From assembly GCA_001661245.1 (NCBI GenBank), contig KV454013.1, positions 1,272,502 through 1,336,501 of the forward strand: a stretch of 64,000 bases of DNA. Direction: 5' to 3'. The translations under genes and the position numbers were made by a program. Positions 9,287 through 57,064 of this stretch are shown here, in pieces; the stretch's first letter is position 1, and the number at the start of each line of letters is the position of its first letter. The DNA comes from Pachysolen tannophilus NRRL Y-2460 (lineage: Eukaryota). The notes beneath the pieces are model-generated. The model saw only the letters and a list, made by a program, of their open reading frames with translations, did not search any database and had not been told where the DNA came from.

Positions 9287-9821
9287 ATAAAATCGTATTG
9301 ATTATAATTAATAAATTTCTTTTAAAACCATGAAAATTCAAACAAACTCAAACATGAAATAAATCAATTTTTTTTTTTTATTTTAAGAAAAAAAAAGAAA
9401 AAAAAGAAGAAAAAAATAATAATGATCTACATATACAAACATAAACTGTGTCACCACAAATGAAAAAAATAAAATAATGAATTATATTAAAACAATTTTG
9501 AAACTATAAAGATGTTCTCTTTCTCTTATTTATTTATCTACTATAGATCCAATAAGTGGTGCATCATCTCTTCCTTTATCAGTTCCATATATTGATTTTG
9601 CAGACACGACTTTTTTCCTTTTTCTCCATTTTCTCCATTTTTCATCCATTTTTCATCCATTTTCTCTCCATTTTTAGTGTTAATACAATAATAATTAATG
9701 GAATATAAGTATCAGTTAATAAAATATAAAATTCAATATTTCCAACAACATGACAAAGCAAGTATTTAATAATATAATAAAACTCAGAAATTAAAAGACA
9801 ATAAAAAAAAAAANAAAAAAA

Positions 9822-10213
9822 NNNNNNNNNNNNNNNNNNNNNNNNNNNNNNNNNNNNNNNNNNNNNNNNNNNNNNNNNNNNNNNNNNNNNNNNNNNNNNN
9901 NNNNNNNNNNNNNNNNNNNNNNNNNNNNNNNNNNNNNNNNNNNNNNNNNNNNNNNNNNNNNNNNNNNNNNNNNNNNNNNNNNNNNNNNNNNNNNNNNNNN
10001 NNNNNNNNNNNNNNNNNNNNNNNNNNNNNNNNNNNNNNNNNNNNNNNNNNNNNNNNNNNNNNNNNNNNNNNNNNNNNNNNNNNNNNNNNNNNNNNNNNNN
10101 NNNNNNNNNNNNNNNNNNNNNNNNNNNNNNNNNNNNNNNNNNNNNNNNNNNNNNNNNNNNNNNNNNNNNNNNNNNNNNNNNNNNNNNNNNNNNNNNNNNN
10201 NNNNNNNNNNNNN
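9822..10213. other. Assembly gap (N run)
   Basis: Run of N flanked by poly-A. Confidence 0.99.
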
Positions 10214-10449
10214 TTTAAAAAAAAAATTATTAAAAAAAATTAAAAAAAATTAATTAATAATAATTAAAAAAAAAGAGATGATGATGTATATATATATATA
10301 TAAAGATATATATAACTGTATATAAACAATGAAGAACAACAGTTTTAAGAAAAAGAAAAAGAGAATAATAATAATAATAATAAAAAAAATTAAAAAAAAA
10401 AAAAAAAAAAAAATAAATACTAAAAATTCACCTATTTTTTCCCTTTTTA

Positions 10450-13400: not shown

Positions 13401-13614
13401 CATTAATAACCCCATTGACATTCTTCTTATCATTAATCGATTTTCTCAACTCTTCAAAAAATTCATAAGGAACATCATGCTCTATAATACTACCATTTAA
13501 AAATGATGCAACATTAGTGGCAGCGCTATCACGTTCTTCTGGAGAAGCAACAGAAAGTTTACCAAATAATTCCGAAAGAACTTCAGCAGATTGTTTTGAA
13601 TCGCTAGAAGCCAT
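10450..13614 (-). CDS. YEF3: Fungal translation elongation factor 3
   Basis: HEAT N-terminus, two ABC cassettes ([20 protein letters not shown]), chromodomain insert, K-rich tail ending VSSDEEF. Confidence 0.98.
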
Positions 13615-13707: not shown

Positions 13708-14005
13708 NNNNNNNNNNNNNNNNNNNNNNNNNNNNNNNNNNNNNNNNNNNNNNNNNNNNNNNNNNNNNNNNNNNNNNNNNNNNNNNNNNNNNNNNNNNNN
13801 NNNNNNNNNNNNNNNNNNNNNNNNNNNNNNNNNNNNNNNNNNNNNNNNNNNNNNNNNNNNNNNNNNNNNNNNNNNNNNNNNNNNNNNNNNNNNNNNNNNN
13901 NNNNNNNNNNNNNNNNNNNNNNNNNNNNNNNNNNNNNNNNNNNNNNNNNNNNNNNNNNNNNNNNNNNNNNNNNNNNNNNNNNNNNNNNNNNNNNNNNNNN
14001 NNNNN
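13708..14005. other. Assembly gap (N run)
   Basis: Run of N. Confidence 0.99.
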
Positions 14006-16710: not shown

Positions 16711-17199
16711 ATGGGTTTAGATCCATTGATGGTAGATGATTCAATTAAAGTTTATTTAAAAAATGAAATTTTAGAATCTCAAGAAGCTATAAATTTTGTT
16801 AAATCTCCTGAAGCAGGTGCAATAATTTTTTTTGGAGGTACTACAAGAAATAACTTTGAATCCAAAATTGTTACAAAACTTTCTTATGAGGCACATCATA
16901 AATTAGCTTTAAAAACAATAATTAAAATAGCACAAACAGCAAAAAAAAATTTTGCAGATGAATCTGTAGATAAAAAAATTCATAAAATTTTTATTAGTCA
17001 TAGACTTGGAGTAGTACCTGTTAGTGAAGAAAGTATTATTATAGCTTTAAGTAGCACACATAGAGAAGAAGGTTGGCAAGCTGCCATGTTCATATTAGAA
17101 GAAATAAAGAAAAAAGCAGAGATTTGGAAAAATGAAATATATGAAGATGGGAGCTCAAGTTGGAAAGAAAATGAAAACTCAAATGTTTTAATCAGATGA
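16711..17199 (+). CDS. MOCS2B: Molybdopterin synthase catalytic (large) subunit, MoaE family
   Basis: GAIIFFGGTTR, LSYEA, HRLGVVPVSEESI, SSTHR, EIWKNEIY are MoaE signature segments. Confidence 0.9.
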   Translation: MGLDPLMVDDSIKVYLKNEILESQEAINFVKSPEAGAIIFFGGTTRNNFESKIVTKLSYEAHHKLALKTIIKIAQTAKKNFADESVDKKIHKIFISHRLGVVPVSEESIIIALSSTHREEGWQAAMFILEEIKKKAEIWKNEIYEDGSSSWKENENSNVLIR

Positions 17200-18578: not shown

Positions 18579-18950
18579 NNNNNNNNNNNNNNNNNNNNNN
18601 NNNNNNNNNNNNNNNNNNNNNNNNNNNNNNNNNNNNNNNNNNNNNNNNNNNNNNNNNNNNNNNNNNNNNNNNNNNNNNNNNNNNNNNNNNNNNNNNNNNN
18701 NNNNNNNNNNNNNNNNNNNNNNNNNNNNNNNNNNNNNNNNNNNNNNNNNNNNNNNNNNNNNNNNNNNNNNNNNNNNNNNNNNNNNNNNNNNNNNNNNNNN
18801 NNNNNNNNNNNNNNNNNNNNNNNNNNNNNNNNNNNNNNNNNNNNNNNNNNNNNNNNNNNNNNNNNNNNNNNNNNNNNNNNNNNNNNNNNNNNNNNNNNNN
18901 NNNNNNNNNNNNNNNNNNNNNNNNNNNNNNNNNNNNNNNNNNNNNNNNNN
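18579..18950. other. Assembly gap flanked by (AT)n microsatellites
   Basis: N run with long AT dinucleotide tracts on both sides. Confidence 0.99.
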
Positions 18951-33648: not shown

Positions 33649-35462
33649 ATGTTTGAAGTAAGTATATATTATAGACTCATTTATCATGTTTTGAAGACTT
33701 ATTAGTGACTAACAAAAAAAACTATATTTAGAATTTAAAAAATTTCATTAGACATGGCAAACAGGCGCATGACACTCAGGTGAGAAATGTTGAAAACTTT
33801 GATTTATTTGCTAGTTCATCAACGTTGAACACACCTGCTGGTGAACCAGATATGGAAATCAAAAATTTGATAAACTCGGATAACAATAATGTTAAAGAAT
33901 CTAAATATTCGAAATGTGTTGCTGATATCGTTAAACAAGAAAATGAAGAACGTAAAAAATTGCCGAGTTATCCATATTTAACAGATTATGCTTTATTAGG
34001 CAAAATGGGAGAAGGTGCCTTCTCTATAGTTTATAAGGCAAAAGATTTAAAAACTGGAGACTTGGTTGCAGTGAAAATAATAAGAAAGTATCAAATGGAT
34101 CAAAAACAACAGGCATTAGTGTTGAAAGAAGTCACTATAATGAGACAGTTAAATCATCCAAATATTGTGAAATTCATTAATTTTCATGAATGTGAAGAAT
34201 ATTATTATATTGTTCAAGAATTGGTGAGCGGAGGTGAAATATTTACAGAAATTGTTAAATATACTTATTTTAGTGAAGATTTAGCAAGACATGTTGTATT
34301 ACAATTAGCAAATGCTATAAAATACTTACACGAAGAAGTTGGAGTTGTTCATAGAGATATTAAACCAGAAAATTTATTATTTGAACCAATTGATTTTATT
34401 CCATCAAAAGAAGTAAAATATAGAAAAAGTGATGACATTAGTACTAAAAAAGATGAAGGTGAATTTATCTACAATGTTGGTGGTGGTGGTATTGGGATTG
34501 TAAAGTTGGCAGATTTTGGTTTATCGAAGCAAATCTGGGAACATAATACAAAGACACCTGTTGGGACAATAGGTTATACAGCACCAGAAATTGTAAGGGA
34601 TGAAAGATATTCGAAACAAGTCGATATGTGGGGGATTGGTTGCATATTATATACGCTATTATGTGGATTCCCACCATTTTATGATGAAAAAATAGAAGCT
34701 TTAACTGAAAAAGTTGCTAGTGGTCAATTTACATTTTTGAAACCATGGTGGGATGAAATATCATATGGTGCTAAAAACTGCGTTTCCTGTTTATTAACTG
34801 TGGATCCAAATAAGCGTTATACCATTGTTGATTTTTTCAATGATCCATGGATTTTGAACTATATTCATAAATGTAAGAAGTACGAGTTGAAGAAGAATTC
34901 AGAAATAGTTGATTCTTCTAGCAACACCTCAGCAAGCAGTTTAACAATGGCCCCACCTCAAATACCTCAAAATCTCAAAGGTTTGTCAAGCTCAAGTGCT
35001 ACTTATACATTCAGTCCTACTACTAGAACTAAATCTAATCATCCAATTCAATCAATCGAAACATATCAACCAATTCAGCAGAAAAAGAAATCGCATTTCA
35101 AGAATTCTGTTGATACAAAAGCTATGTATTCACCAGCTGCTGTTGCATTAAGAGACGCTTTTGATATTTCTAATGCTGTTCACAGAAAACAAGCTGAACA
35201 AGAGTTATTAAAAAAATTTAATTCGAGTTTCAATGATTCGAAAATGGTAATCGATGAAAATGAAGAAGAAAATGAAGATAGTATAGGCGAAAATCAAAGA
35301 ACTTATGGTTACAGCACAGATCCTAAAGCTAAAGCTAAAGCTTCCAATAAACATGGAAAGGATCTTTTTGAATTAAATCTTACTAGCTCTGCCATACTAG
35401 AAAGAAGAAAGAAAAATCAAAATAAAAGTAATAGGCAAATTCCACTTGTTATAAAGGAATAA
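33649..35462 (+). CDS. RCK2: CaMK-like MAPK-activated kinase; exons 33649-33657 and 33732-35462
   Basis: ATGTTTGAA|GTAAGT..GACTAAC..TAG gives MFENLKNFIRHGKQA; GEGAFS, HRDIKPEN, Rck-specific DEGEF..GGGGIG insert, DFGLSK. Confidence 0.92.
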
Positions 35463-36111
35463 AAAGGCATTTTTTTTTTTTTTTTTTTTTTCTAGAATGG
35501 GTTTTATTCTGTATTATATTTGATGTTTTGGATTTAACTTTTTATACATTATTTTTTTTTTTGTTCTCACAGTTCTCATCGTTATCGTTGAATTCATTGT
35601 TGAATTACTATTGTGGATCATATTTCATTCTTATTTTTCAGTTCTGAATTTATTGTCTTCTTTCTATATACTTTAAACTCTCTATATAGATGATTTTCTT
35701 TTTATTTTTTTAAAATGTTCTTTTTGTTTCTGGTCTTGGAGATATATTATTTTTCATTTATATATGACAATGCTCACTATATACTAATGATAATCCAAAG
35801 AGAAGTTGCATCAAATAAAATAAAACTAATCAACCAATTGTAGCCTACATTTGCTCAAGTTCATGGTTTTATAAACGACATAGATTTATAATGGAAGTGT
35901 ATGAAATATCAAATGTGAATTAAATTTATTTGTTCTCATAATGTCAACACATCTTCGCCAACAAATCTATATCTGTTTACTTACCTTTAATTAATCCACC
36001 AATTCATTTTCACCGAGGTCATATATTAATTAGACTGTTCCATAGTATTGAATAAGCTACAGAAATTTAGCTTGATTGACTAAATAATAAAGAAAAAAGA
36101 AAAGAAAAAAA

Positions 36112-36678
36112 ATGGACAACGAGGAAGACGGTAGTAATAACAAATACTATAATGATTTTTTGAAACAAGTAAACCGTGCTAAGTTAACCTATCAAACATA
36201 CTTGGATAAAATAACTCCACATGCGGTTTATAGGTGGGCATCTTTTTATGTTTTGATATTTCTGTTTATGCTCAGAATATTCATGACAGAAAGTTGGTAC
36301 ATTGTTTGTTATACCCATGCTATATATCTTTTAAATTTGTTTTTGGCCTTTTTGACCCCGAAGTTTGACCCCTCGTTGGAACAGGAGCAACGTGATGAAT
36401 CTATGGAAGAAGGAGCTGCTGCAATGAATGAGGAAGATTTCAGGCCTTTTATTAGAAGATTGCCCGAGTTTAAGTTTTGGTATAATGCTACCTGGGCTAC
36501 CATTTTAGCGTTGTTTAGTACATTGTTCAAATTCCTTGATATTCCAGTTTTTTGGCCAATTTTGCTCATGTATTTCATCATACTTTTCACGTTGACTATG
36601 AAGAAACAAATTCAGCACATGATTAAGTACAAATATATTCCATGGGATTTAGGTAAGAAACATTACTCAAGAAAATGA
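36112..36678 (+). CDS. RER1: Golgi-to-ER retrieval receptor
   Basis: LLNLFLAFLTPKFDP, FRPFIRRLPEFKFW, DIPVFWPILL, QIQHMIKYKYIP. Confidence 0.96.
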   Translation: MDNEEDGSNNKYYNDFLKQVNRAKLTYQTYLDKITPHAVYRWASFYVLIFLFMLRIFMTESWYIVCYTHAIYLLNLFLAFLTPKFDPSLEQEQRDESMEEGAAAMNEEDFRPFIRRLPEFKFWYNATWATILALFSTLFKFLDIPVFWPILLMYFIILFTLTMKKQIQHMIKYKYIPWDLGKKHYSRK

Positions 36679-39600
36679 TTGAATCTAGAACAAGAGGAAA
36701 AAAATTGGTTAACTATAATTTATATATATAGCTAAGTCGATTAAATGTCAGTGGACTGGGAATTTTTGAAATGGCAGTCAGTAATTTTATTGTTGATATT
36801 TTTCTCATTTTTTCTTTATAATTCTTTGTTGCACTCTACTGTATTTTATTATTTTATCGTTTCTTTCTTCGCCAAATTTTCTCATATACATATATATATA
36901 TACGTAAGTTTGAAAGTACCAAATTTGCTTTCAAGATAGATCAAAGAAGACAATTAATTAGAACTTTGAAAGTAGGATCAACTATGTTTTTAGTAAATTC
37001 CTTTAAGATTTATAAACACATTTTGTTTAGGCAAGTAAGAATGATTTTACTTTGGAGCTCGGAGCTCGGAGCTTGGAGCTTGATCTCATCTGTGAAATGT
37101 AAAATATTGGAAAAAAAAAATAATTTTGGTAAATGCAGTAAAACATTTGTTAACTTTTACTATTAATTTGAATTCTATCAAACTCTATTACAAGTTTTGA
37201 TTTCTAGTAATATAAAGCCGTTGTAGAGGAGCGAAAACATAAATATTATGTTTTCACTGCACCAGCAGATCATTTATCGCTCTAAAATCTATGATCATTT
37301 TGATTTGACAACATTTTTAAATAGTTCTCATGAAGTGCTATTCTTTTCTTGAAACCTACAGTATTGCAGTCAGCCTTAAAGTAAGTTATTCAAAATTTTG
37401 TCTTTCATAGTCACCATTACATTATTCTTTTAATTTCAAATGAATCTCAGAAAGCAAAAAAATTAAAAAACGAAAAACAAAAAAAATAGCAAAGAAAATG
37501 CAAAAAAAATGCAAAAAAAAAAAGTAAAAAAAAACATTTTGGCTATTGATGCAATCAATATTCAATCTTGAGAAATCAGAAATTATGATATCCTTCGAGG
37601 ATAATTTTAAAAAAATTGAAGTTTTACTTACTAGCTTTCATAAAAAAAATAAATATTTTTAAAATTATATGTAAAAAGAACTATCTCCAAGTTATTTTTA
37701 CAGAGTTGTTATATTAATTAATTTAAATTATTCAATAAGCGGTCCTGCCTAAGAACATTCTATATTCATAAAGATAAAGTGCCTGATTGGAAAACAACAA
37801 AAACGGTTGTTTCTGTTAAGCAAATACTGTAATTACAAAAAAAAAAAGCTAGCTTTCAGCAGAATTCAAAAATATCTCGTAAGAGCAAATTAATATCAGA
37901 AAGAAAGAATATATATTAGACAGTAATTCGTAATCAAGATCACTTCTATTAGGTCGCCAAAATTTTTTTTAGTTCAATGAAGACAAACATAAAAAAACAT
38001 TTGTGAACATATCATTGAAATCATGTTCTTGTTTAACTCGCAATCCTGAGAATTCAAAAAAATAATGGAAGCGATTAAATTCGAATACGTCTCTTTTAAT
38101 AAACGACTTCATTAATTAATAAAAAAGGTTAGTAAACGAAGGTAATCTTCCCGACGAATTACCTAACTTGGTATAAGTAGTTTCATTATTTCAGTTTGTA
38201 TCCGAGTTTCCAAAACGTAAATTTGCTTACAGTTATCTCAATCTTCAAGATATCACTTTCATCTTATAACCTCTCAGTACTACCGCAACGTTGTGCCCCC
38301 ACAATTTCTTTCTGACAACTGTGTTTATTGTTTATTCTCAAAGCAGCGGAATCAAACTTCATTTTACGATTGAAATCACTCAAGAAGCAAAATATTCATA
38401 CTCTACTGGTTCACATTCATAAGAACTTTCCATGAAGGAACTCATCCTATCTAAGTTCATGTGACATTTTTACTAGAATGAAGTTCATTTTGATTTCCTA
38501 TACTAAAATTTATTAAGAACTACAACCTATCAACCTTACTGTAACTTACTGATTTACAGAGGGCGTAAAATATTTTTTAAGTAACTTGCCTACATACAGC
38601 AAATTTCTAATTTCCTCCGAACTTAAAAGTCACGAAGACTCATGAAATGCAACATGCTACAGCGATATTAATTATTTTCTCATTTATGTTTCAATTTCCA
38701 TAGTGGGTGTTAAACACTGAAAAGTTCGAAACTTTCAACTTCAGCGTAACTCACAATAAGATAGCTTTCTTCGTTAGAGAAAGCAAAAAACAATTTAAAA
38801 CATGAGCTTATTTTATATAAAGAAATATCACAATTCAGTTAAAAAATTTATGGTTTTCATTTTCTCTTGAAACAAAAAAAGATCAAATAAAAGTCTTATG
38901 CTCCACTGTTTCCAGTCACTGTTAAAAGGAGGTTTCTAATTGTGGTTAACTACCGCACTGACTTTGAATTTTGTCTCAATATTACAAAGTTCTCAGAAAC
39001 ACTGGCGACTCTTATTAAATAAATTAAGAATAAATTAAAAATGAGTGTTCCTAACCGTTAGACATTTTTTTTCAACTTTTTGCTTGGAGACGTAGAAGGA
39101 AGGAAACATACTTCATAACTTAAAATCAATTCGACCAGTTTTCTAGCAATGAACACAAAACAATAATTCCTTGCGGGTTTTTCCATCCTTACCCAATCTT
39201 GATCTTAGAGCAACAGAGATACCTGTTGCGTAGAAATAAAAAACACTTTTTTGAAAATATGCCTGCTGAAGCAATATGACACTTAAGGAAGATAAACTAA
39301 ACTTTTGTTGATACTCAGACAAACTAATTTCTCGGAGCTGCAATTTGGCACCTTCTGGAACAGCAAGCAAATTGAATAAGGATAAGGTTCTCCCTTTAAT
39401 TTGACTCTCGTTAGTATAACATTCTAAGATCATGTCTAGAGCCTAAGGAAGAAGGTCTCATTGAGGAACTCTCAAATTAAAATATACGACATGTTTTGCT
39501 GGTCTAGAAAACGATAGTCACTAGGCGGGAACAGCAATCAGCCATACTGTGGGTAGCCTCATTAAATAGATGATAAGATATAGACGATACCGAGAGATAT

Positions 39601-42600
39601 CGGATGAGGTTAATTATCAAGAGTAGATCACTTTTTCTTTGTTTCAAACCCTACATTTATAAAGTTTGTAGGTTTATAGCTTTTATAAAGCAATTAGTCA
39701 ATAGATTTAGTTTTTTAAGCAATCATGACTTGCCATATGATTTTTACATATCATTAGTTATTTCGTATTTGCTACTTTCCTCATAACAATATTGATTAAA
39801 AGTTCCTCCGTAAACCAATTCAATTTAACACAAAGTCAAAGTTATATTTCTATTAGGCATTGTTAATGCTGCAACTGGGTTACTTGAAATTGGGCCTACT
39901 TTTCAAATTCATTTCAGGCATTCAGCAGCTCATATCTATTTTGAAAAAAGACACATGAACCAGAGTCGTTTTTGACTAGATTATATCAGTTGGTTTTTTG
40001 TAAATCCTTGTAATTTTCTTAAAGCTCTGAACATTTACAGCACTTAATAGTTATTTATATCCTTGAATAAGTATTATACTAACCCGAACTTTTTTTTTAC
40101 TATTTCATCAGAAAAGAGACAGTAAATGGAATACTTTTATCTTGCGCTACAGTGTCTTATCGGTACTTCTCGACCATCAAATGATAATTTTAACAGCGAA
40201 AAAAAAAAAAAGGTCCTTCAGAAATGTTCTAGGTGGTTAGGAACCCCTTCCCTGGCTACAGTAAGATACTAAAAACTTCATGCTGCTTTGTATAAAGTAA
40301 ACTCAAAATTGTAACTATTATCTTTATGAAACAGTCAATAATAAACTCGATATTTAACTCCATAGAGGCCTTCTTTTGGTTTTCCTGCAGAACTTCCATA
40401 TGGTGACAGTTACATCGTGGAAACTGGAAAAATCATTATTCTTGCTCTACCCTCTAACGTTTTTAAATGGCCATCTACAGGCAGTATCATCAATTCTCTC
40501 AATCGGTCTTCTCATCTTCTCATACTATCGATCCACTAACGATTAGAATAGATTTGGAAATATCCTTTCTGTATCTACAACTTTTGCCTGAACTAATTTA
40601 GCTTACAGGTGACTATTGTATGTTCGATGCCCATTTCAACTATCTAGATTTTTTGGCTTCCATAATTCAAATTAATGCATAAGCAATAGAGATGGCGAAC
40701 CTTAAAGTATTTTTAATTCTCTCAGACTGTTATAGCCAGAAAGCTTTTTAGTGCATATTCTGCCTGCAACAATAGGGTTAAGCCTCAGAAATGTATAGAT
40801 GCTTGCAAAACGAGATCTTTGGGAGATATGCATCTCAATTCAATTTTGTTTCATCAAGTTTAGTTCACATTAGTAGGTGTATACACAAAAAATAGTTTAT
40901 TTTCTTTCTGATCCGAGAAGAAATGCATTAATGCTTTTAATGAAGTGGTTATTTCTTTCCGGCTATAAGAAGAGGAATTTAAAAATTTGATTTTTTGAAA
41001 GAAAGTTCTTTAAATCATGTCGTACTTCATTAATAGTAAAAGTAGATAAAAAGTTTTCCTGCCATGTATATAGAATATTCAGAATAACAAGAAATAACGC
41101 ACTATTCATTAAATGTCAGATCTGACTACATCAAAAAATCTAAAACCCGTATGGAGATACTTATCCAGTTTTTTTTGGCATATAGAATATTTGAGTAAGA
41201 AAACAGATAACATCTAAAGGGCATATTGCAGTAGAAATTATTACTTTGTAAAAGTAGATTTGGGCTCCTAACCATCAGAAGTTTTTTATCATATACTATT
41301 GTGAGAGATGTTTTGCGTTTGTTATTTCGTTAAGTTAGGCGCTTTTGAATAACCCTTGGTTTCAATGATTTGTTTTGAAATCTTATATGGATAGTATTGT
41401 AAGTTGAAACTCCCATAAAGTCTAATTTGAGGAGACACAAGAAGGTGGGTCATTTATGTATGTTCTTGAGCTTCTGCAGTAATTAGTAAATCTAAAACAT
41501 TAAAAAGAAAGAAAAACTTTGGCTGGTTTTTCTTGCATCTACAATGTTTATAGCTACTAGTTTCAGATTTATCTCTCAAAATTAGGAGAGATGGAGTAAT
41601 TATTAGAAGTTCCTTGATCTTTCGTCTTAGGTCAGTGAACTGTCAATTTTGCTTCTAAATTGTAAACTGAATTCAAAGATATATGGAATTGTTATTATTA
41701 TCATCAACAAAATTTGCAGAATTAGAGTTTAGAACGTTGAGTGGCTATTATTTGGGTCTATAGTTTTCAAGTATTAACGTAAGGCAAGTATTGAGAATTG
41801 TACTGTCTGATTCCAGACAAACTTTAAATAATCTTCGCAGTCATAATTATTATATCTTCAGAAATTGGAATACCTAGTTGCTATTAATTGGCGAGTTAGC
41901 TATAGTGGATATAACTTAAAATATAATTTAAATAACATTTTATAATAATGGAGAAACTAGAAAGTAAAACTTCTAAATGTTCTTGGAAGGCTTTGACTAT
42001 CCTTAACTTAAATCAAGTTATTGGGAATGGTCATGCAAGATAATGTTTTGAGTGAATATAATTTGATCAATGTCATCTATAGGTAATTATTTCAGCTTAA
42101 TTTCAAAGAAACAATACGAGGCAAACGTAAACGAAGAAGAAATCCGACAAGGAATTTAGAAAAAATTGAAAGGTATTTAAATATTTTCTGAAAAAGGTCT
42201 GGTTTGATGCTAAGACAATTACATTTTACAAGAAGTACATAAAATAAATTGATATTTCAGATAAAGAGATGATGAATTCAAAGAAACAAAAGTCTATATA
42301 TGAAGTTTGGGGCATTCAAACATTGTCGGAGGTACTGAATAAAGCGATATTTTCTGAAATCCTCAGAAAATGAAGTGTAACCTCTGTTTGAAGAAATTAA
42401 TAAGTAAAACTATTTATCTTTAAATCCAGCGGACACATTCCGATGTTAATATTTTTTGGTATCCAAAAATGCAAATTCAGTATTATTTGAAATTTGGGAA
42501 AGAATTTTCATGTTTAAGTTTCTGTGCAAAAGTTAGCTGGAGTGCAAACCTGCTTGAAATGAAAAATAGTGAGTGGTAAGTGTTACATTCAGTAAAGAAA

Positions 42601-43431
42601 TATTAACAGAAATTAGACTAGACTAATTCGCGTATAACTAATAGTCGAATTTGATAAAAGTTTATAAGTTATTTGAATTAAAGAAATAGAAGAAAAGAAT
42701 ACTTATCTGTAGATATTTACAGATTTTTGAGTGAAATAACCTCTAAGATTTCTCACCATAATGCACTCTGAAATATCTTAGGCTAGAAAGGTTTGTATTT
42801 TTGATTGAAATTTCGAAACTTTTATGATTTTTCTACTTTAGAAGTGTTGAGAAGTACATAGTACAAGAGTAAAGAAATCAAAGGTCAGGAGATTGTATTT
42901 TTTGTGAGGGAATCAACCACCTATCGTAGAAGAGGCGGTTGAAAAAATATAATTTTGTTTTCACTTAAGCGTTAATTATTCAATTTCTTACGACAGTAAA
43001 TTTTATGTTTCAGTTAGCGTTCTTCAAATGACTGGAAAGCAGATCTTTCTGGCTCGTTTATTCACTGTCCATTTTTTTTCGTATTTTAGCTTGTTTTTGA
43101 TTATAGATATTGCTAATCTACATCACTTACTTACATTTAAATTTTTTTTAAAAAAGTAGGGCTGCATAGCATCTATTTTTCAAGTAGATGCATTAAGAAA
43201 AATGTTAGCAATTATCTCAGTAATATTATTGATATTATTTTTATTATTTATATTATTTATATTATGAGGAGAAATCAGAAATCATCATTGATTGTCACGA
43301 GTGTGATGTATTACTGAGGTTGTTTTCAAGCTGGAATTTGTACTTGGAAAATAAGTGAAAAGTTTGATGGTGAATACTCGTTTCAGAGAGAGTACTTTAG
43401 TATCATTTGTTATCATCGGCAAAGAAGTAAT
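36679..43431. other. 6.75 kb gene-free interval; candidate regional centromere / replication origin
   Basis: No credible ORF; by far the longest intergenic in the window; GC-skew switch; centromere-linked orthologues on both sides. Function is inferred. Confidence 0.65.
37054..37080 (+). repeat. Short tandem repeat (GGAGCTY)x4
   Basis: ggagctc ggagctc ggagctt ggagct. Confidence 0.8.
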
Positions 43432-45207
43432 ATGGGGAAAATCCGCCGAAGCAGAACTGGCTGTTTTAATTGCAAATCCAGGCGTCGAAAATGTGATGAA
43501 TCCAAGCCAGCTTGTCAAAATTGTCTTAAAAGTGGTAGGAATTGCGAATATGGTATAAGATTGTCTTTTGATGTTGATGACAGTAGATATGATTCGAATA
43601 ATTTTCATGTGAATGATAAAGGTGTGATAAAGTATGGCTTTAGAGGACGACCACGTTTGAAGGAAAGCATAGGCGAGAGAGGAACAAATGATTCCGGAAA
43701 TTCATCGTTTCAACAGATGACGAGTTCAAGGGAAACTCTAGGAAAAAATATTGATAGTCAATTAAAGCCTGTTGAAGATTCAACTGTACTCGATATTCTC
43801 AGTTCGGACTTTAACATCAACAATTTGTTGAACAGTCCTAAAAATTCGGAGTCTTTGAATGAGTCATTGAATTTAACTAATAACCAGAATCTTAATTGCA
43901 ACGATACTTCAGAGGTTTTGACTCTTGTGGATAATGAAAATTTATATCTGTCAACCCAATTGTCATATGCTGAAGAGAATATGATGTTGCAACATTTTTT
44001 TGCAAACTTGTTGCCGTTATTAGATTCACATCCAAATGCGCCTTGGCCTAAGCTAGCTTTAAAATATTGTGATTTTGAGATTGCTCGCAGTTGTTTTATA
44101 TCATTATCCTGTATGCATTTGTATGAAAGCACAGGAGATAAAGAATTTTATAGCAAAGGATTAGTTCATATTGATAATGCAATGGAATGCTTGAAAAATC
44201 ATATGAAACAGGGCCATATGTTAAATAACAATATGATAAATAGCCATTATAGTGGAAAAATCAATATCAATGTTGATATTATAGTTGGTCATTTAAAAGA
44301 AGAAACCATGAAGAAAAAACAATCAAGTTTTTTCGTTATTTTAATTTTGATATATGTTCATCTTTTATTTTCAGTTTTGGAATCAGGAAGGTCAATGCTA
44401 ACGAGAATTTTTTGGAAATTGTTTGCTACCATTACAGAAGATCCACTTTTCAAGCAAGTTTTAGGGAAAATAGATCAATCTCAAACTTTTATATGTGTTT
44501 TATCCTGGTTTGACACTATAACCGCAGTGGTTTCACCTGATTGTAGACTTCCGTATTGTAGTCCAAGATGTTATGGGACCAAAAATGATGCGATTTCAAT
44601 TGCTAAAATGAATGGATGCCCAGGTGAGATTTTCACTTGTATTGCTAAAATTTGTAAATTAAGAAGAGATATCAAATATAATCAGATTGAACTAGATGTA
44701 TTAATGAAAAAATATACAGAAATCAAATTTGAGTTACTTAATTATAGAGAATATGTATCATTACAAGTTGTAAATCAGATAGAAAATGATGATAGTATAT
44801 GTTTAAAATCTGAAGATAAATATGATGTTAGATTAAGGGGTGCACAATGCTGGGCATTATCGTCTTTAATCAAATTGGTTTCTGTTGTTAAACCTGAAGG
44901 TTATAGAGTAATAATACAGCAATTAATTAGTGAATTTATTCAAGTTTATCATTCAATGGATCCTAAATCTTCAATTATTGTTCAAATGGTTTGGCCTATA
45001 TTTAATGTTGGTTGTGAGTGTATCGAAGAACATGATAAGGAAAAATTGAGAATTTTTATGACTAGGTTATATCAGAATGCTCAGATGGGTACTTTATTCA
45101 CTTTAAGGAAAATTGTTGAAGAAGTTTGGGAAACTGGTAAGACATCTGAGGAAATTTTATCCGGTAAAGAATGGTTGGGATCTGGTATCGATTATTTACC
45201 GTTATGA
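43432..45207 (+). CDS. Zn(II)2Cys6 transcription factor with Fungal_trans_2-like C-terminal domain
   Basis: [34 protein letters not shown]-terminal WPIFNVGCE. Confidence 0.88.
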
Positions 45208-45381
45208 AAAGAAACATAGATTTAAAAATTTAAATTAACCAAAACTAATTAGTATATATATATATATATATATATATTTGTATAATTGTAGGTAAAATAA
45301 ATTTACAAAAAAAAAAAAAAAAAATTAAAAGAAATTAAAGAACAAAAAGCTAACAAAACAGATACAAGAAAAAAACTTGAC

Positions 45382-46932
45382 TTATAATTTTTGCATAGCA
45401 GCAACATCAGTGGATTGAACGTGATCTTCATCTTCTTCAATAGCTTGTTGCAATGCATCTAATGAGACTTTTTCATCTTCGATGACTAAGTTAATTTGTA
45501 ATTTCTTAATACCGTAACCAACTGGGATCAATTGATGAGCACCCCAGACTAAACCATCTTGTTCAATAGCTCTAACATTAGCTATTAATTCATCCATATT
45601 GGTTTCATCATCCCATGGTTTAACATCCAAGGTGACTATAGATTTAGCAGCTGGTTTTGGGCCCTTAGCAGCCTTCTTTGCAGCATATTCAGCTAATCTT
45701 TGTTGTTTCAATTTTTCAGCTTCTTCATCAACTTCTTCATCATCAGAACCAAACAAATCGACATCATCGTCATCTTCTGCAGCGGCAGAGGCAGCAGCAG
45801 CTGGAACTTTACCTGCAGGTAAAGTTGCAAATTCATCTGTGAATGAAGCAATGTGGTTGAACCATCTTGCAAAATTTGGAAATTCCTTTTGGAAATTTTT
45901 GTAAACGGTAACGTCAGCTTGTGTTGCTGAAGAACTAAATACAAGAAAATAATAAAAAAAAAAAAAAAGAAAAAAATTGTTAGCAGTCAATTCGAATTAT
46001 AAAAATTTTTTATTTTTTTTTCTTCTTCTTCTCAACTTTCTTTAATGAATCTAGTATGATCTATAGTTATACTTTATGGATCAGGAAAGTGAATTGGTTT
46101 TGATACTCATACAATGGGTCTTGAGTCCATCTCATAAACACGGACCAAAGATTATGTTCATCATTCTAAAAGTATAAATATAAATAACTAGATCAAAACT
46201 CAAAGCCAATCTTTTTTCTTTTAAAAATTTTTTTTCTTAAGCAATGAGTAAAAGAAAGAGAGAGCACGAGGAATGAAATATTAACAAAAAAAAAAAAATT
46301 TTTTTTTTTTTTTTTAAATGAATTTGTATACNNNNNNNNNNNNNNNNNNNNNNNNNNNNNNNNNNNNNNNNNNNNNNNNNNNNNNNNNNNNNNNNNNNNN
46401 NNNNNNNNNNNNNNNNNNNNNNNNNNNNNNNNNNNNNNNNNNNNNNNNNNNNNNNNNNNNNNNNNNNNNNNNNNNNNNNNNNNNNNNNNNNNNNNNNNNN
46501 NNNNNNNNNNNNNNNNNNNNNNNNNNNNNNNNNNNNNNNNNNNNNNNNNNNNNNNNNNNNNNNNNNNNNNNNNNNNNNNNNNNNNNNNNNNNNNNNNNNN
46601 NNNNNNNNNNNNNNNNNNNNNNNNNNNNNNNNNNNNNNNNNNNNNNNNNNNNNNNNNNNNNNNNNNNNNNNNNNNNNNNNNNNNNNNNNNNNNNNNNNNN
46701 NNNNNNNNNNNNNNNNNNNNNNNNNNNNNNNNNNNNNNNNNNNNNNNNNNNNNNNNNNNNNNNNNNNNNNNNNNNNNNNNNNNNNNNNNNNNNNNNAAAT
46801 ATTAAACAAAAAAAAATTTTTTTTTTTTTTTTAAATGAATTTGTATACATACCCTTCAATATAAGATTTATCAGCTAAGAAAGTATTCAAAGCAGCAACC
46901 GATTCAATCTTTGAGAAATCTGAAAAGCTCAT
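45382..46932 (-). CDS. EFB1: Translation elongation factor 1B alpha (EF-1 beta); exons 46932-46853 and 45934-45382
   Basis: 80-nt exon 1 MSFSDFSK...[57 protein letters not shown]. Confidence 0.97.
46077..46168 (-). ncRNA. SNR18: Box C/D snoRNA snR18 (U18) in the EFB1 intron
   Basis: Minus strand: box C ATGATGA (46164-46158), guide CTTTGGTCCGTGTTT followed by D' ATGA, box D CTGA (46084-46081). Same host intron as yeast snR18. Ends approximate. Confidence 0.9.
46332..46796. other. Assembly gap, probably spurious (flanks overlap)
   Basis: Near-identical ~55 bp (AAATATTAA..A-run..T-run..AAATGAATTTGTATAC) on both sides of the Ns. Confidence 0.9.
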
Positions 46933-48634: not shown

Positions 48635-49186
48635 ATGGACCAATCTCAACAATCCAAGAAATTGGTTGAACACTATTTACTTTCAAAATCTTCCTTTAAA
48701 ACTATAATAACAAAAGATCAATTTAAATTACAAGTAAACAAGGTGAATAAATCAGTTGATGATTCAACAATTGATGAATTATATAATTTATTAGCTTTCC
48801 AGAATAACAAAAGAGTAAAAGAGATCAGTCGAGCTATAAAACAAGATTTTCAAATTTCTGATATCAACAAGGATTTAACTAATAAAACACTGAATATCAA
48901 TACAAATCTGAGTTTTTCAGGAGAAGAAGAATTTTTATTACAAAGTGCTGATAAGGAAACATTAGAATCAGTTGTACAAGAATTAGAATTATTGAATGAT
49001 TGTTTAGGAAAAGAAATTCAAATAGTAGAATCACAATCATCTCAAATTTTACAAAATATAAATTCAACCATAGATGAGTTGAGTGATTTAAAATATGGAA
49101 AATTATTATTTATGTCTTCAATAGAAGAAGCTTGCAAATCATTAGAAAATTTAGAACAAAATATTATTAACAAAGTTTCTATATGA
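48635..49186 (+). CDS. NKP2: Probable kinetochore protein Nkp2/Cnl2 family
   Basis: N-terminal HYLLSKSSFKTIITKDQF and C-terminal IDELSDLKYG resemble Cnl2/Nkp2; convergent with TAD3 as for YLR315W/YLR316C; ACGCGT at 48612. Confidence 0.7.
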   Translation: MDQSQQSKKLVEHYLLSKSSFKTIITKDQFKLQVNKVNKSVDDSTIDELYNLLAFQNNKRVKEISRAIKQDFQISDINKDLTNKTLNINTNLSFSGEEEFLLQSADKETLESVVQELELLNDCLGKEIQIVESQSSQILQNINSTIDELSDLKYGKLLFMSSIEEACKSLENLEQNIINKVSI

Positions 49187-50277
49187 ACAAATTTTCATCA
49201 ACGTTACCTGTATGAAACTCATCTTTAGTACTGCACCATTTCCAACTATCAAATTTCCAATTTAAGTTATTGAATTTTTCAATACCAATACATAACCCAC
49301 TTGTCTTTTCTATGGCACCAGTTACAGGTGCAGATTTAATATATGTTAATTTCCCAATTCTTGAATGAACCAAAGCCATTGCACACATAGAGCATGGTTC
49401 ATGAGTTGTATAAACATGGTAGTTTAAACAAAGATAGTTTTTAATATTACAAGAATCAATATTAGTGTCTTTTTCTCCATGAGATTGTCTTCTTTGCAAT
49501 TCTTTGAGTGCAATTTCTTCTATACATTCAATAATAGTATGATTTAATGGGTTCTTCCATCTATTGTCAGTTTTTAAACTCATTGTTTCATTGGTGTTTG
49601 GATTTACAAAAAGAGTGACTATTGGAATTTCCTGTACAAAATTAATTATCGTTAGTATATAAAGAAATGCAATTTAAAAATAAAAGAAATTATTGTAGAC
49701 ATACCCCTTTATTTTCTAAACTTGATGAAATTTCACTAATTTTTTGTAAATATTTTTTCTCTCTTTCAATATCAATTTTAATTTGATTAAGCTCTTGAAT
49801 AATAGGATTACCTTTCCAAATAACTGGCCAATATTTTGCAGACCATTGCAAGGCCAAATCTTTTGAAGAAGGATAATTCTTAGGAACTTGAAAAATATTA
49901 ATTTCACTAGCTAGATCCAGATCGTATCTTACCAACATTGAAACAAGTTCATCTTTATTTTTGATATAGTCTTTGCTACAGACTAAAGTCAATAACTTAG
50001 TTGGAGTTTCTCCTTGTCGTATCTTTAATTGCTGAAATCTTTTCAAATATGGGAAATCAAGTGGATCGTTACCTGTAATATTCTCTTTAATAAATTTTAA
50101 TATAGAACTCGATTTTATCGAGGGAATCACCGCTACCCAAACTTCTTCCAATTGTACTTCATCATTTATTAAACCATTCTCGGTCCCAATTATTTTTTGC
50201 AAACAATCATCAAAAACATAGTTCTTCTCATCTATCTTGTGAAATGACCTATTTCTTCCACATTTTTTGTTCAACAT
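49179..50277 (-). CDS. TAD3: tRNA adenosine-34 deaminase non-catalytic subunit; exons 50277-49705 and 49631-49179
   Basis: WSAKYWPVIWKGNP; GTATGT..TACTAAC..CAG intron fuses two track ORFs in phase 0; HTI in place of catalytic HAE; EPCSMCAMALVHSRI. Confidence 0.92.
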
Positions 50278-54415: not shown

Positions 54416-56768
54416 TCAGAATTCAGAAAACTGGCTCTTCAAATTTTGTTCATCTTTTAATTTTCTAAGTCTTTCTGTTTCTTCTATTCCACCAGATTTT
54501 TTCAATTTATTAGCACCAACAAAACCACCCAACTCTTCTTGAAAATTGTCAGTCATAGTCATCATCTTTTGCATTTCTCTTAATCTTTCTGCTTTCGCTA
54601 TAGCTTCCACCCTACCTTCATGATTAGGCTGCAATGCAACAACTTCTGATAACAAGGCATCTCTGATACCTGTTATACTTTCACCGGGTTCAGGAATTGG
54701 CAAATTCGGAATTGCTTTGAAATTAGGATTTTTGGTAAGTTGAACAGAGCATTCTTTAACTAATTCAAATGTTTCAAATGCCTTTTCTAGATCCTCTTTA
54801 AGATCCATTACTAACTCTTCTTGCAAGTTAAAGAATTGTTGTTCTTCACAAACAGTATTCAATTCGCTTTCCCAAATTTTTTTCCAATTTTGCTTTTCAG
54901 TTGAAATATATTCTTTTACTTTCTCTAAATTTTCATTAGCAGAAATCAATTCTTTAGAAATAAACAGCAATTGCTTCTGAGGAGGTCTTGCACGCCTTTG
55001 GGCGACGTCTTTCCTTAAAGCTTCAATGATGTCTTGTATATCATCCGTCCTGGTCAACAAGTTTTCACAATCTGTTGATAATTTTGAATGACAGCTTTCC
55101 ATATATACTCTGTTCGAGGACTTTGAAATGTTATAACTGGATGATTGGAATTCCTTGACTTTTTCTATTAAAGATGCTATTGTATCTTTGAACGTTGACT
55201 TATTTGTAGAACTAATCTGTTTAATAACAGTTAACTCTCGCCGTATATCTTCAATTTCTTTGAGGTTTGTATTTACTACAGAACTTGACTTCAGAACTGG
55301 TACATGAATTTCCTTTTCGTGTTCTTCTTCCACTGAATTCTTATCGCTCTTACCTGAATTTGTCACAATAGTTTGAATATTTGATAAAAGACTTTCTTGC
55401 ATCAGCGACATTTGCAATTTCAAAGAATCCATTTGAGCTTCCAAATTCTTTACTGCGAATGTGGTTGACTCTGGTTCATTCAATGATAATAAAGAACCAG
55501 GCTGAATATCATTTAAATATTGTTCTTCCAATTCATATGATACGTTTGAATTTGGGTCTTGAATATACAACTCTGGGAAAGAATCTGTTCCTGGAGAATA
55601 TGCAAATCTTTCAACAAATAGCAATCTTAAAGATGGAAACGTTATTGGAAATTCAATCTTTGCTTTTTTCACTTTTTGATTTATCTTTAAATATATTAAA
55701 ATTTCCTCATTATTTTGTTCCTCTCTGTGTTGTTGCGGCACTGGTTTACCATCTTCCAGCGAGGAAAAATTGTTATTTAATAATGAAGATCTTTTTGTTG
55801 GAGTATCATAAATTTTTTCATTTATATTTCCAGGTAAATCAGAGTCTCTATCTGGGGTGAAACTTGTTAGTTTAGCGTACTGATAAGCAGAAAATCTTTT
55901 GGACGCCCTTCTTTTCAACGAATCACCCTGTTGCAATTGTGATAGCAAATCTTTGGAATCTCTTTTATTCAAGATTTCTGGATTAGAGATAGAACTTAAT
56001 GATTGGGGTTGATAAAATGAAGAATGCGAGGATGAATTTTCTTGAATTGAATTGTTATCAGAAATATCGGTCGTAGTTCCAGCTGCAACTTCTAGAGTCT
56101 TTGAAAATTGGGAGGGAGTGCTTTCGCTGCTATTTGGGTATAACAGTGGACTTGGAATTGATCTAATATTTTGTTGACTTTCTTGTTGTTGTTGTTTCTG
56201 TTGCTGTTGCTGTTGTTGTTGTTGTTGTTGTTGATAAATCTTTGCAGAGGCTTGTTTTTTCTTCAAGTTTTGTAATAGATTAACAATTATTTCTCTAATT
56301 GAAGGTAGAAAATTATCTAAACTTTCCTGGGATGGCTCTTCGCACAAAGCTTCTTCTAACACCAATCTCAAAGTATGAGGCACATCTCCTAAATCGCTGA
56401 CATCGACTCCAGAATTTGAAAAAGATCGACAAGCAATCTTGAATTCATTACCAAGATTAACATAACAATCAGAAACATCATTTTCAGTGGCCTCACGTTT
56501 CGCCCATTGTGTAAGACTTTCCAACAATTTTTTAGTAGCAACTAGTAACCTTGTAACACTTGATTCAATTGTAATCTACATAGATAATACATTCATTCAA
56601 AGTTTGAAACTCGAGTTAGCATATGATCTAAAATCACAAATTACTAAAATACCAAAGAAAATAAAAAATAAAATTAAAAAAAAAAAAAATCTAACTTACT
56701 GATTGTTTCTGTTTAGATATCGAGGCCATCTCACCATTGGAATTTCCATTCGACAGAGGCATTTGCAT
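54416..56768 (-). CDS. BUD6: Actin/formin-interacting polarity protein; exons 56768-56700 and 56575-54416
   Basis: GTAAGT..TGCTAAC..TAG intron restores IESSVTRLLVATK; LKRRASKRFSAYQ, LRLLFVERFAYSPG, WKKIWESEL, KLKKSGGIEE; poly-Q tract. Confidence 0.93.
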
Positions 56769-57064
56769 TCAACACCAACTGATCTGTTTCTCTCTATATG
56801 AACTCAATGTTCTTACTTATAATAATAAACTCATCAACTTCTTCTTCTTCTTCTTGTATATTGGCGCTTAATTTATTGAAGTCTGCACAGAATTTGATAT
56901 TCTGGAAACGACTTTTGTTTTTTTTTGATATAAAATATTTAACGGCGCGTAATTCTTTTCTCTGTAATCTAAAGGATTTAAACAAAGGGTATTTCGAATT
57001 CGAAAGAGATTACAAGATAGAAAAAGGAATATTGAATGAGTATATAGCTTTGAATGTGCTGGAA

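Follow-up and report, generated by a model that had tools for sequence, protein, structure and literature searches.

Small regional centromeres have been described in Candida albicans and C. dubliniensis (Sanyal 2004; Koren 2010). As characterized by Koren et al. (2010, PMC2924309), all eight C. albicans centromeres lie in a long intergenic region, show raised GC content and have a GC skew that changes from negative to positive over ~3 kb on each side; they also carry an AT skew, which is weaker and opposite in sign. The same report used the combination of long intergenic region, skew and GC content to predict centromeres in other yeasts. In Clavispora lusitaniae, the centromeres are described as unique, non-repetitive sequences, Cse4-bound over 4-5 kb, in deep GC-poor troughs (Kapoor 2015). 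In Komagataella phaffii (order Pichiales), centromere gaps of 6-9 kb contain a 1 kb core flanked by a 2 kb inverted repeat (Coughlan et al. 2016). These gaps are reportedly untranscribed, one per chromosome and unrelated in sequence between chromosomes.

According to two recent papers, the centromeres of budding yeasts stay at their chromosomal positions as one structure gives way to another; the two disagree on whether the Ty5 cluster is the ancestral form (Hession 2025, PMC12711049; Haase 2026, PMC13017519). Across three orders, Hession et al. (2025, PMC12711049) report centromeres of changing structure at conserved locations; they place CEN1 of the Phaffomycetales between RER1 and SSL1, and the ancestral Anc_CEN1 between DOM34 and MRPL32. 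Genes linked to centromeres keep that linkage in both Pichiomycetes and Saccharomycetes, as described by Haase et al. (2026, PMC13017519), who date the split of these two classes to ~250-310 My and place the Alaninales among the orders of Pichiomycetes. As presented in these two papers, conservation of location is demonstrated for orders other than Alaninales, and none of the five species in the Ty5-cluster table of Haase et al. (2026, PMC13017519; Supplementary Data 3) comes from this order. Our literature search found no published centromere for any Alaninales species, Pachysolen tannophilus (CUG=Ala) included.

Here we describe a gene-free interval of P. tannophilus, found within a 64 kb window (the whole stretch of DNA analysed, 64,000 nucleotides), that probably holds the centromere of its chromosome, as judged from features of the sequence. 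Its position, GC skew and GC content support this reading, the latter two being features that the initial annotation of the locus had not considered.

A gene-free interval bounded by RER1 and a Zn2Cys6 gene

The interval spans 6,753 bp (36679-43431) between the RER1 orthologue and a gene for a Zn2Cys6 transcription factor, which falls nearest to clusters of generic Zn(2)-C6 factors in the ESM Atlas (Table 1). The 27 other intergenic segments of the window, counted after the addition of small genes found later, have a median length of 310 bp and a maximum of 1,526 bp, so the earlier size estimate of about 1 kb or less broadly holds. As had also been stated, these segments are rich in A/T tracts, with 5.47 tracts of at least 8 nt per kb.

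Table 1. Features of the interval and of its left flank, in positions of the 64 kb window.
Feature	Position	Strand	Basis or detail
Left flank genes, part 1	14792-35462		PGS1-like, MoaE, MRP7-like, SGF29, GBP2/HRB1-like, mannosyltransferase (Pfam)
Left flank genes, part 2	14792-35462		AP small chain, YNL010W-like HAD, EF-hand, YNL011C-like CofD, SPO1/PLB-like, RCK2 (Pfam; RCK2/Srk1 name matches)
RER1 orthologue, left boundary	36112-36678	+	188-aa ORF; Pfam Rer1, E 6.8e-73
A/T-tract-rich ordinary intergenic DNA, 3' of RER1	36679-38060		GC 0.258, GC skew 0.02
Complex, repeat-free, non-coding core, ~5 kb	38061-43070		GC, A/T tracts, coding and repeat searches
Left skew arm, C > G on + strand	38000-40769		Cumulative minimum at 40770
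T9 and A13 tracts, ~100 bp apart	40090-40211		Skew switch lies 0.6 kb to their right
Right skew arm, G > C on + strand	40770-43431		Counts and 2x2 test
Promoter-like A/T-tract and (ATATTATTT)n stretch upstream of the Zn2Cys6 gene	43071-43431	+	
Zn2Cys6 / Fungal_trans_2 transcription factor, right boundary	43432-45207	+	591-aa ORF; Pfam

The interval is divided into three parts. Its first segment contains 15 A/T or (AT)n tracts of at least 7 nt (36698-38062) and is probably outside the proposed centromere core. The central ~5 kb contains only five A/T tracts, and its density of tracts of at least 8 nt is 0.98 per kb, against the density given above for other intergenic DNA; we counted this near-absence of promoter-type tracts in favour of a centromere. 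The segment is the proposed CENP-A (Cse4) domain. The final 0.36 kb before the Zn2Cys6 gene looks, from its sequence, like an ordinary promoter. The view of the interval as mostly complex sequence thus applies to ~38,060-43,070 and fails for the first 1.4 kb and the last 0.36 kb.

Base composition, GC skew and coding signal

The GC content of the core, 0.310 +/- 0.021, exceeds that of the remaining intergenic DNA (0.229) and of fourfold sites (0.158), in a window of 28% GC whose coding sequences have a GC content of ~0.30. The skew of the core is two-armed. On the left (38000-40699), 390 G and 486 C give a GC skew of -0.110 (p 0.0013), and on the right (40700-43431), 473 G and 326 C give +0.184 (p 2.2e-7); a 2x2 test at 40770 gave a chi2 of 39 (p 4e-10). 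The negative-to-positive switch at 40,770 is the strongest within the window, with a V statistic of 117 that was reached by none of 5,000 permutations (permutation maximum 87). AT skew is absent from both halves of the interval (-0.007, p 0.8, and -0.010, p 0.68), which we counted against a centromere.

The genes at the two ends do not explain these arms, which lie beside the 3' end of RER1 and the 5' end of the factor gene, because the fungal coding-strand bias described by McLean and Tirosh (2011), towards C at 5' ends and promoters and towards G at 3' ends, predicts the opposite signs. Divergent pairs of coding genes in the window show equally strong skew (V of 116, 114 and 102), and divergent non-coding transcription could therefore also write the pattern seen in the interval.

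The prior claims of a 6.75 kb gene desert and of no credible ORF are both borne out. The longest stop-free frame in the interval has 114 codons, against a longest frame of 92.5 +/- 16.3 in 200 shuffles, and 19 frames reach at least 50 codons, against 16.3 +/- 3.6. Coding signal is absent, as the best 100-codon codon-usage score is 0.103 (shuffles 0.096 +/- 0.038; mean of real genes in the window 0.380) and the period-3 signal is 0.25-1.5, compared with 8-39 in the genes of the window. Six-frame translations, with X at stops, matched no Pfam family (E<=1), and hence no reverse transcriptase, integrase or gag, and no PDB sequence (E<=0.1). Similarity to proteins had been named beforehand as what would expose the interval as a decayed gene or transposon, and these searches returned none.

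We consider it highly improbable that the interval consists of decayed protein-coding genes or of a degenerate retrotransposon (a Ty5-like relic) in two opposite orientations. Such an origin would suit a core GC content equal to that of coding sequence, a GC skew of the same size as that of coding strands in the window (0.17) and a core about as long as an LTR retrotransposon, and Ty5 clusters have been proposed as the ancestral centromere state (Haase 2026, PMC13017519). Besides the missing codon-usage and period-3 signals and the empty Pfam and PDB searches, however, the interval shows no LTR-like direct repeats, and its AT skew is ~0 in both halves as against +0.078 on coding strands. A relic that has lost every protein signal should, moreover, have drifted to the GC content of 0.16-0.23 seen at unconstrained sites.

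Some yeast master regulators, for example in C. albicans, are preceded by intergenic regions of many kb. The interval could by the same token be a long regulatory region of the downstream Zn2Cys6 factor, with or without long non-coding RNAs, in which divergent transcription from the middle of the gap would produce the two-armed skew. The right boundary gene is indeed a + strand transcription factor, the excess of core GC over fourfold sites might stem from selective constraint, the skew matches that of the divergently transcribed gene pairs, and the centrally placed T9/A13 pair might serve as a bidirectional promoter. We nevertheless regard this explanation as unlikely. It leaves unexplained the placement of the gap in the ancestral centromere neighbourhood, exactly at its RER1 end (see below), and the 5 kb core nearly lacks the A/T tracts that mark promoters or nucleosome-free regulatory sites elsewhere in the window, while the final 0.36 kb already includes a promoter-like segment. 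Over the 2.7 kb preceding the factor gene the bias is towards G (+0.184), whereas promoter-proximal fungal DNA is described as C-biased on the coding strand (McLean and Tirosh 2011). An Rfam search of 35500-46300 (E<=1) gave no match within the interval. Furthermore, the genome scan of C. albicans for skew and GC recovered, besides the 8 centromeres, 2 weaker internal origins and 11 telomeric sites, of which 9 reached comparable levels, and no further class of site figures in its results as described by Koren et al. (2010, PMC2924309).

Gene neighbourhood and ancestral centromere location

RER1 adjoins the interval, and the 22 kb to the left contain seven further genes that belong to the ancestral CEN1 neighbourhood. 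The genes named in the initial annotation were mostly recovered, with Pfam support for the PGS1-like and MRP7-like proteins, the SGF29 tudor protein, a three-RRM protein (GBP2/HRB1-like), the HAD protein (YNL010W-like), the CofD protein (YNL011C-like) and the PLB/SPO1-like protein; EFB1, also named, was not found in the window. We take RER1 together with the orthologues of PGS1, MRP7, SGF29, GBP2/HRB1, YNL010W, YNL011C and SPO1 to represent the neighbourhood of S. cerevisiae CEN3/CEN14 (Anc_CEN1).

To the right of the Zn2Cys6 gene we identified SFH1-, NKP2-, TAD3-, EST2-, IPK1-, BUD6- and MMS22-like genes, presumably a block like YLR315W-YLR321C. The change between the two gene-order blocks falls exactly at the interval, which fits an exchange of chromosome arms at the centromere. 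The second conserved flank (SSL1, or DOM34/MRPL32) was not found to the right of the interval, and DOM34, which is located between RER1 and Anc_CEN1, is absent from the window. Because EST2 is nearby, we considered a telomerase RNA inside the interval; it could not fill 6.7 kb.

The neighbourhood is the same as that of CEN1 in Phaffomycetales and of Anc_CEN1 in Saccharomycetales (Hession et al. 2025, PMC12711049). RER1 is the flanking gene, and the PGS1-to-SPO1 orthologues are nearby. At the P. tannophilus interval, in contrast, the other flank, SSL1 or MRPL32 in those orders, is replaced by the YLR315W-321C-like block.

The same position could be held by a former centromere or by a strong constitutive replication origin, with the active centromere elsewhere on the chromosome and possibly close by. 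GC skew, as discussed for C. albicans, reports the long-term use of an origin and not kinetochore function (Koren 2010, PMC2924309), and centromeres have occasionally moved, by ~12 kb in B. discipulorum and by 250 kb in B. californica (Hession 2025, PMC12711049). Four runs of N (298-465 nt) sit in other intergenic regions of the window, and these masked stretches nearby conceal sequence in which a small centromere might lie. This alternative appears quite unlikely, however, as a long-distance move is reported for only 1 of 49 Phaffomycetales centromeres (Hession 2025, PMC12711049), and ordinary C. albicans origins are described as generally without stronger skew than non-origin sites (Koren 2010, PMC2924309). 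A dead centromere would also be expected to shrink, or to fill with genes and A/T tracts.

Form of the candidate centromere

Neither inverted nor direct repeats were found in the interval, where the longest matches are low-complexity A/T runs, and its tandem repeats are tiny. A word-7 blastn comparison of the interval with the whole window returned matches of at most 68 nt (best E 2e-4). There is no kb-scale inverted repeat, the longest inverted matches being at most 44 nt at 70% or at most 68 nt at 71% and of low complexity, in agreement with the earlier impression, gained by eye, that no large one exists. The point-centromere layout that had likewise been reported missing (CDEI and a CCGAA-containing CDEIII, separated by ~80-200 bp of A/T-rich spacer) has no match in the interval, and loose CDEIII occurs 5 times where 5.46 are expected. 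Six-frame Pfam and direct-repeat searches found no Ty5-like reverse transcriptase or integrase and no repeated LTRs in the interval, very old solo LTRs aside.

These results separate the interval from several known types. It lacks the repeat of K. phaffii, which belongs to the same class (Pichiomycetes) and has gaps of similar size, and more generally the kb-scale repeat that defines the inverted-repeat type (K. phaffii, C. tropicalis, C. parapsilosis). It also lacks the point-like motifs, inverted repeats and Ty5 clusters described for Phaffomycetales and Saccharomycetales centromeres (Hession 2025, PMC12711049). The interval is non-repetitive, as are the centromeres of Clavispora lusitaniae, whereas its core is GC-richer than the non-coding surroundings and those centromeres are described in GC-poor troughs. 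Many yeast centromeres are reported to sit in such troughs or in Ty5 clusters (Hession 2025, PMC12711049; Haase 2026, PMC13017519); that the interval is neither was counted against a centromere.

The likeness is with C. albicans and C. dubliniensis. The interval is likewise gene-free, falls within their 4-18 kb size class, has neither repeats nor a motif, and shows a similar skew switch (~3 kb on each side there) and a GC content above that of the surrounding non-coding DNA. In combination, a long gap, a skew switch and raised GC content form the signature shared by all C. albicans centromeres (Koren 2010, PMC2924309). The differences are the AT skew of C. albicans, absent here, and the taxonomic distance, as C. 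albicans belongs to the Serinales and P. tannophilus to the Alaninales, with a much more AT-rich genome. The original proposal of a centromere was partly supported, through the CEN1-flank genes with RER1 abutting the gap, the C. albicans/K. phaffii size class and the repeat-free sequence.

If the interval does hold the centromere, this may instead be a short, sequence-defined element, a motif tens to hundreds of bp long that the chromosomes have in common, with the rest of the interval as spacer. Centromeres of this kind occur in Kuraishia capsulata, Wickerhamomyces anomalus and Starmera quercuum. The evidence from location would be identical, and motifs of 17-200 bp are reported to have arisen repeatedly in neighbouring orders (Hession 2025, PMC12711049). 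Such an element would, however, leave 5 kb of raised GC content and skew over ~2.7 kb on each side unaccounted for, and no repeated motif was found within the interval. We consider this form doubtful and assign it a small part of the likelihood given to a centromere as a whole.

A unique-sequence, regional and epigenetic centromere is the form that we prefer, at slightly less than an even chance. It would occupy a location inherited from the ancestral budding-yeast CEN1 at its RER1 flank, most likely as a small regional centromere like those of Candida albicans. Approximately 3-5 kb of repeat-free DNA within the 38.06-43.07 kb core would be packaged into Cse4/CENP-A nucleosomes and kept promoter-free. 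The core would double as a constitutive, early-firing replication origin, from which two diverging forks may have written the negative-to-positive GC skew around ~40,770. What the sequence shows is the anatomy, composition, GC skew and gene neighbourhood; Cse4 occupancy, kinetochore function, origin activity, epigenetic instead of sequence-defined specification and transcriptional silence of the core are what we infer.

If true, this would be the first centromere located in the order Alaninales, and a mapped centromere at the RER1 site that lacks Ty5, inverted repeats and any motif would supply evidence from a missing order. The RER1-flanked site would be common to the P. tannophilus gap, S. 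cerevisiae CEN3/CEN14 and Phaffomycetales CEN1, extending the principle of conserved location and structure replaced in situ across the Pichiomycetes/Saccharomycetes split, and the 'featureless' type of centromere would have arisen more than once. We tentatively suggest that Alaninales may have regional centromeres of the C. albicans kind, free of repeats, Ty5 and inverted repeats, that double as constitutive origins and have a GC content twice that of neutral sites, this one lying at the shared RER1-flanked site. The finding would also bear on the repression of the silent MAT orientation in P. tannophilus, for which the mechanism is called unclear in the account of Krassowski (2019), and would provide a candidate sequence for stable centromeric plasmids in this xylose-fermenting yeast.

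Within the core, the T9 and A13 tracts to the left of the skew switch possibly mark a nucleosome-free spot or an origin.

A gene-free interval beside RER1

The window is AT-rich budding-yeast DNA (GC 28.1%) of Pachysolen tannophilus, a member of the order Alaninales that reads CUG as alanine (table 26). Its longest intergenic segment, hereafter the gap (36679-43431; 6,753 bp), is flanked by an RER1-family gene and a Zn2Cys6/Fungal_trans_2 gene (the factor gene), both assigned by Pfam. The remaining 27 intergenic segments have a median of 310 bp and a maximum of 1,526 bp, the gap being 4.4 times as long as the longest of these. This census was taken after adding an RFA2-like gene, SGF29, a longer GBP2/HRB1-like frame, TAD3-like pieces, two tRNAs and a snoRNA-like match. 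Four N runs (9822-10213, 13708-14005, 18579-18950 and 46332-46796; 298-465 nt), which are assembly gaps or masked stretches, hide sequence in other intergenic regions; a single N at 9814 is also intergenic. N runs produce spurious ‘ORFs’ at 46314-46878.

The longest stop-free frame in the gap is 114 codons (92.5 ± 16.3 in shuffles with the same bases). A codon-usage log-odds model trained on 25 ORFs of the window gave a best 100-codon score over six frames of 0.103 (shuffled gap, 0.096 ± 0.038), compared with a leave-one-out mean of 0.380 for the window's real genes. The left and right halves of the gap have a period-3 power of 0.25 and 1.53, versus 8-39 in four genes. Six-frame translations with X at stops matched no Pfam family at E≤1 and none of 177,635 PDB sequences at E≤0.1, and thus contain no trace of a reverse transcriptase, integrase or other domain; Rfam gave no match inside the gap at E≤1. 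The protein-similarity check for a decayed gene or transposon, suggested in the initial annotation, is therefore negative. Every protein-level and frame-level test, together with absent AT skew, argues against decayed genes or a transposon, an explanation that we regard as highly improbable.

A repeat search of the gap returned only low-complexity A/T-rich matches, and TRF found tiny arrays only, including a 7-mer repeat at 37052-37082 (4.4 copies, 91% matches) within the A/T-tract-rich stretch immediately 3' of RER1. The longest blastn match (word 7) of the gap to the whole window is at most 68 nt (best E 2e-4). A CDEI-spacer-CDEIII pattern had no match, and a loose CDEIII pattern had 5 matches, versus 5.46 expected. 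The probability that we give below to a centromere in the gap also covers a short, sequence-defined one. The initial description of a gene-free 6.75 kb interval with no credible ORF, no point-centromere layout and no large inverted repeat is borne out by these results.

Composition and GC skew of the gap

Composition is not uniform along the gap. The segment 36698-38062 carries 15 A/T or (AT)n tracts of at least 7 nt, has a GC of ~0.26 and looks like ordinary intergenic DNA of the window. The following 5 kb (38063-43071), here termed the core, contains five such tracts. T tracts return in the final 0.36 kb, along with a (ATATTATTT)n array, and this segment looks like a putative normal promoter for the factor gene. 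Core GC is 0.310 ± 0.021 (500 bp windows) versus 0.229 in other intergenic DNA (Mann-Whitney p 0.001); third codon positions in the window have 0.198 and fourfold-degenerate sites 0.158. Core composition is thus kept far above that of the least constrained sites, yet there is no coding signal. The strongest of the five core tracts, T9 and A13 (40090-40211, ~100 bp apart), sit ~0.6 kb left of the GC-skew minimum and are a candidate nucleosome-free or origin site.

Cumulative G-minus-C drops by 117 from 37,231 to a minimum at 40,770 and then climbs by 152 to the gap end, a two-armed switch unmatched in 5,000 shuffles of G/C labels (maximum 87). GC skew is -0.110 in the left arm (38000-40699; p 0.0013) and +0.184 in the right arm (40700-43431; p 2.2e-7). 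Neither arm shows AT skew; the window's coding strands have +0.078. The switch is the strongest from negative to positive in the 64 kb, tied with three others (V, a statistic for switch size, of 116, 114 and 102) that fall between divergently oriented coding genes. Fungal coding strands, according to McLean and Tirosh 2011, carry an excess of C over the promoter and 5' end and an excess of G at the 3' end. For flanking genes that are both on the + strand, this bias predicts skews of the reverse sign beside the 3' end of RER1 and the 5' end of the factor gene, so their transcription does not explain the gap skew. Unannotated divergent non-coding transcription could be its source. An extended regulatory or lncRNA region belonging to the factor gene would account for the constraint and possibly the skew, but leaves unexplained the location, the scarcity of A/T tracts and the G bias upstream of the factor gene, and we consider it unlikely.

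In the passages of Koren 2010 (PMC2924309) on centromeric skew, all C. albicans centromeres have asymmetric GC skew, negative to positive over ~3 kb each side, with GC raised relative to intergenic and fourfold sites. The skew is absent from ordinary origins there, and is interpreted as the mark left by a constitutive origin that fires earliest. A C. albicans scan by intergenic length, GC and skew, described in the same passages, yielded the eight centromeres, some telomeric sites and two weaker internal origins. The Pachysolen core resembles these centromeres, as so described, in length, raised GC, and GC-skew sign and span, but does not reproduce their weaker, opposite AT skew. The gap probably contains a centromere; its assignment to the repeat-free regional, epigenetic type is more tentative. 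On this reading, the 5 kb core would serve both as a small regional centromere and as an origin. That the gap is instead an origin or a former centromere appears improbable.

Gene neighbourhood and the ancestral CEN1 location

The genes in the 22 kb left of the gap, identified by Pfam, are listed in map order below. On the standard S. cerevisiae gene map, eight of them lie beside CEN3 or CEN14, in agreement with the CEN3/CEN14 neighbourhood proposed initially. S. cerevisiae is not known to have the molybdenum cofactor pathway.

Genes and an RNA candidate around the gap, from left to right
Feature	Position	Strand	Remark
PGS1-like PLD protein			Pfam
MoaE, molybdopterin synthase large subunit	16711-17199	+	Pfam; between PGS1 and MRP7
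MRP7-like mitochondrial L27			Pfam
SGF29 (tudor domain)			Pfam
Three-RRM GBP2/HRB1-like protein			Pfam
Mannosyltransferase			Pfam
AP small chain			Pfam
YNL010W-like HAD phosphatase			Pfam
EF-hand protein			Pfam
YNL011C-like CofD protein			Pfam
SPO1/PLB-like lysophospholipase			Pfam
RCK2 (kinase)	33852-35462	+	
RER1 (Rer1 family)	36112-36678	+	Pfam; left edge of gap
Zn2Cys6/Fungal_trans_2 gene	43432-45207	+	Pfam; right edge of gap
SNORD18-like C/D box snoRNA candidate	46077-46169	-	Between Zn2Cys6 gene and SFH1
Cnl2/NKP2-family kinetochore gene	48635-49186	+	E 1.8e-9
Two adjoining ORFs	49179-50277	-	Between NKP2 and EST2
BUD6/AIP3-like ORF	54416-56797	-	

To the right lie SFH1-, NKP2-, TAD3-, EST2-, IPK1-, BUD6- and MMS22-like genes, which we take to be another conserved block, YLR315W-YLR321C. 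As the conserved blocks on its two sides differ, the gap coincides exactly with a synteny junction, which is what an exchange of chromosome arms at a centromere would be expected to produce. In the sections of Hession 2025 (PMC12711049) on centromere location, arm exchanges are among the usual rearrangements near centromeres, Anc_CEN1 lies between DOM34 and MRPL32, RER1 and SSL1 flank CEN1 in three Phaffomycetales species and W. canadensis, and location, not structure, is conserved over three orders. The corresponding portions of Haase 2026 (PMC13017519) place Alaninales in the class Pichiomycetes and report that point-centromere-linked genes are still centromere-linked in Ty5-cluster species across Pichiomycetes and Saccharomycetes. 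The H. uvarum expression table in that paper gives RER1, PGS1 and MRP7 as g002232, g002234 and g002263, which fits RER1-PGS1-MRP7 linkage if numbering follows map order.

A centromere in the gap, inherited from ancestral CEN1, is the most economical account. Length, GC, GC skew and location give partial support to the initial annotation's regional centromere of the C. albicans size class, with kinetochore function a prediction. We rank the alternatives as a regulatory or lncRNA region, a short sequence-defined centromere, an origin or former centromere, and decayed genes or a transposon. The literature searched (coverage incomplete; an earlier report is possible) held no published mapping of a Pachysolen or Alaninales centromere, nor does Supplementary Data 3 of Haase 2026 (PMC13017519) include one. 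The relevant part of Krassowski 2019 calls the basis of MAT silencing in P. tannophilus unclear. A centromere in the gap is a prediction that is well founded and open to direct test, for an order without a mapped centromere; the predicted centromere is of an already known kind, not a new one.

Observations on neighbouring genes

IRC20-like and YEF3 genes are neighbours at 4436-13614, and RCK2 is 20 kb off beside RER1, with the PGS1-to-SPO1 block between; in S. cerevisiae, IRC20 and YEF3 flank RCK2. Its displacement points to local rearrangement, by inversion or insertion, next to the candidate centromere. RCK2 is an unbroken 536-aa ORF here (full-length homologues in other yeasts, 489-640 aa). 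The partial public protein of strain NRRL Y-2460 (385 aa) is 100% identical over 64% of the query (next best match, 64%), and this model looks truncated. The SNORD18-like candidate scores 38.5 bits (E 2e-4), just below the Rfam gathering score of 41. The two adjoining ORFs resemble the two parts of an intron-containing TAD3 orthologue; the 134-aa one has a cytidine/deoxycytidylate deaminase zinc-binding region. The BUD6/AIP3-like ORF (338 aa) covers only profile positions 74-406, and the 1.4 kb upstream has a coding-like GC of 0.33; an intron or frameshift probably falls within its N-terminal part. The distance between the NKP2-family gene and the candidate centromere is 5 kb, a proximity that is probably coincidental.
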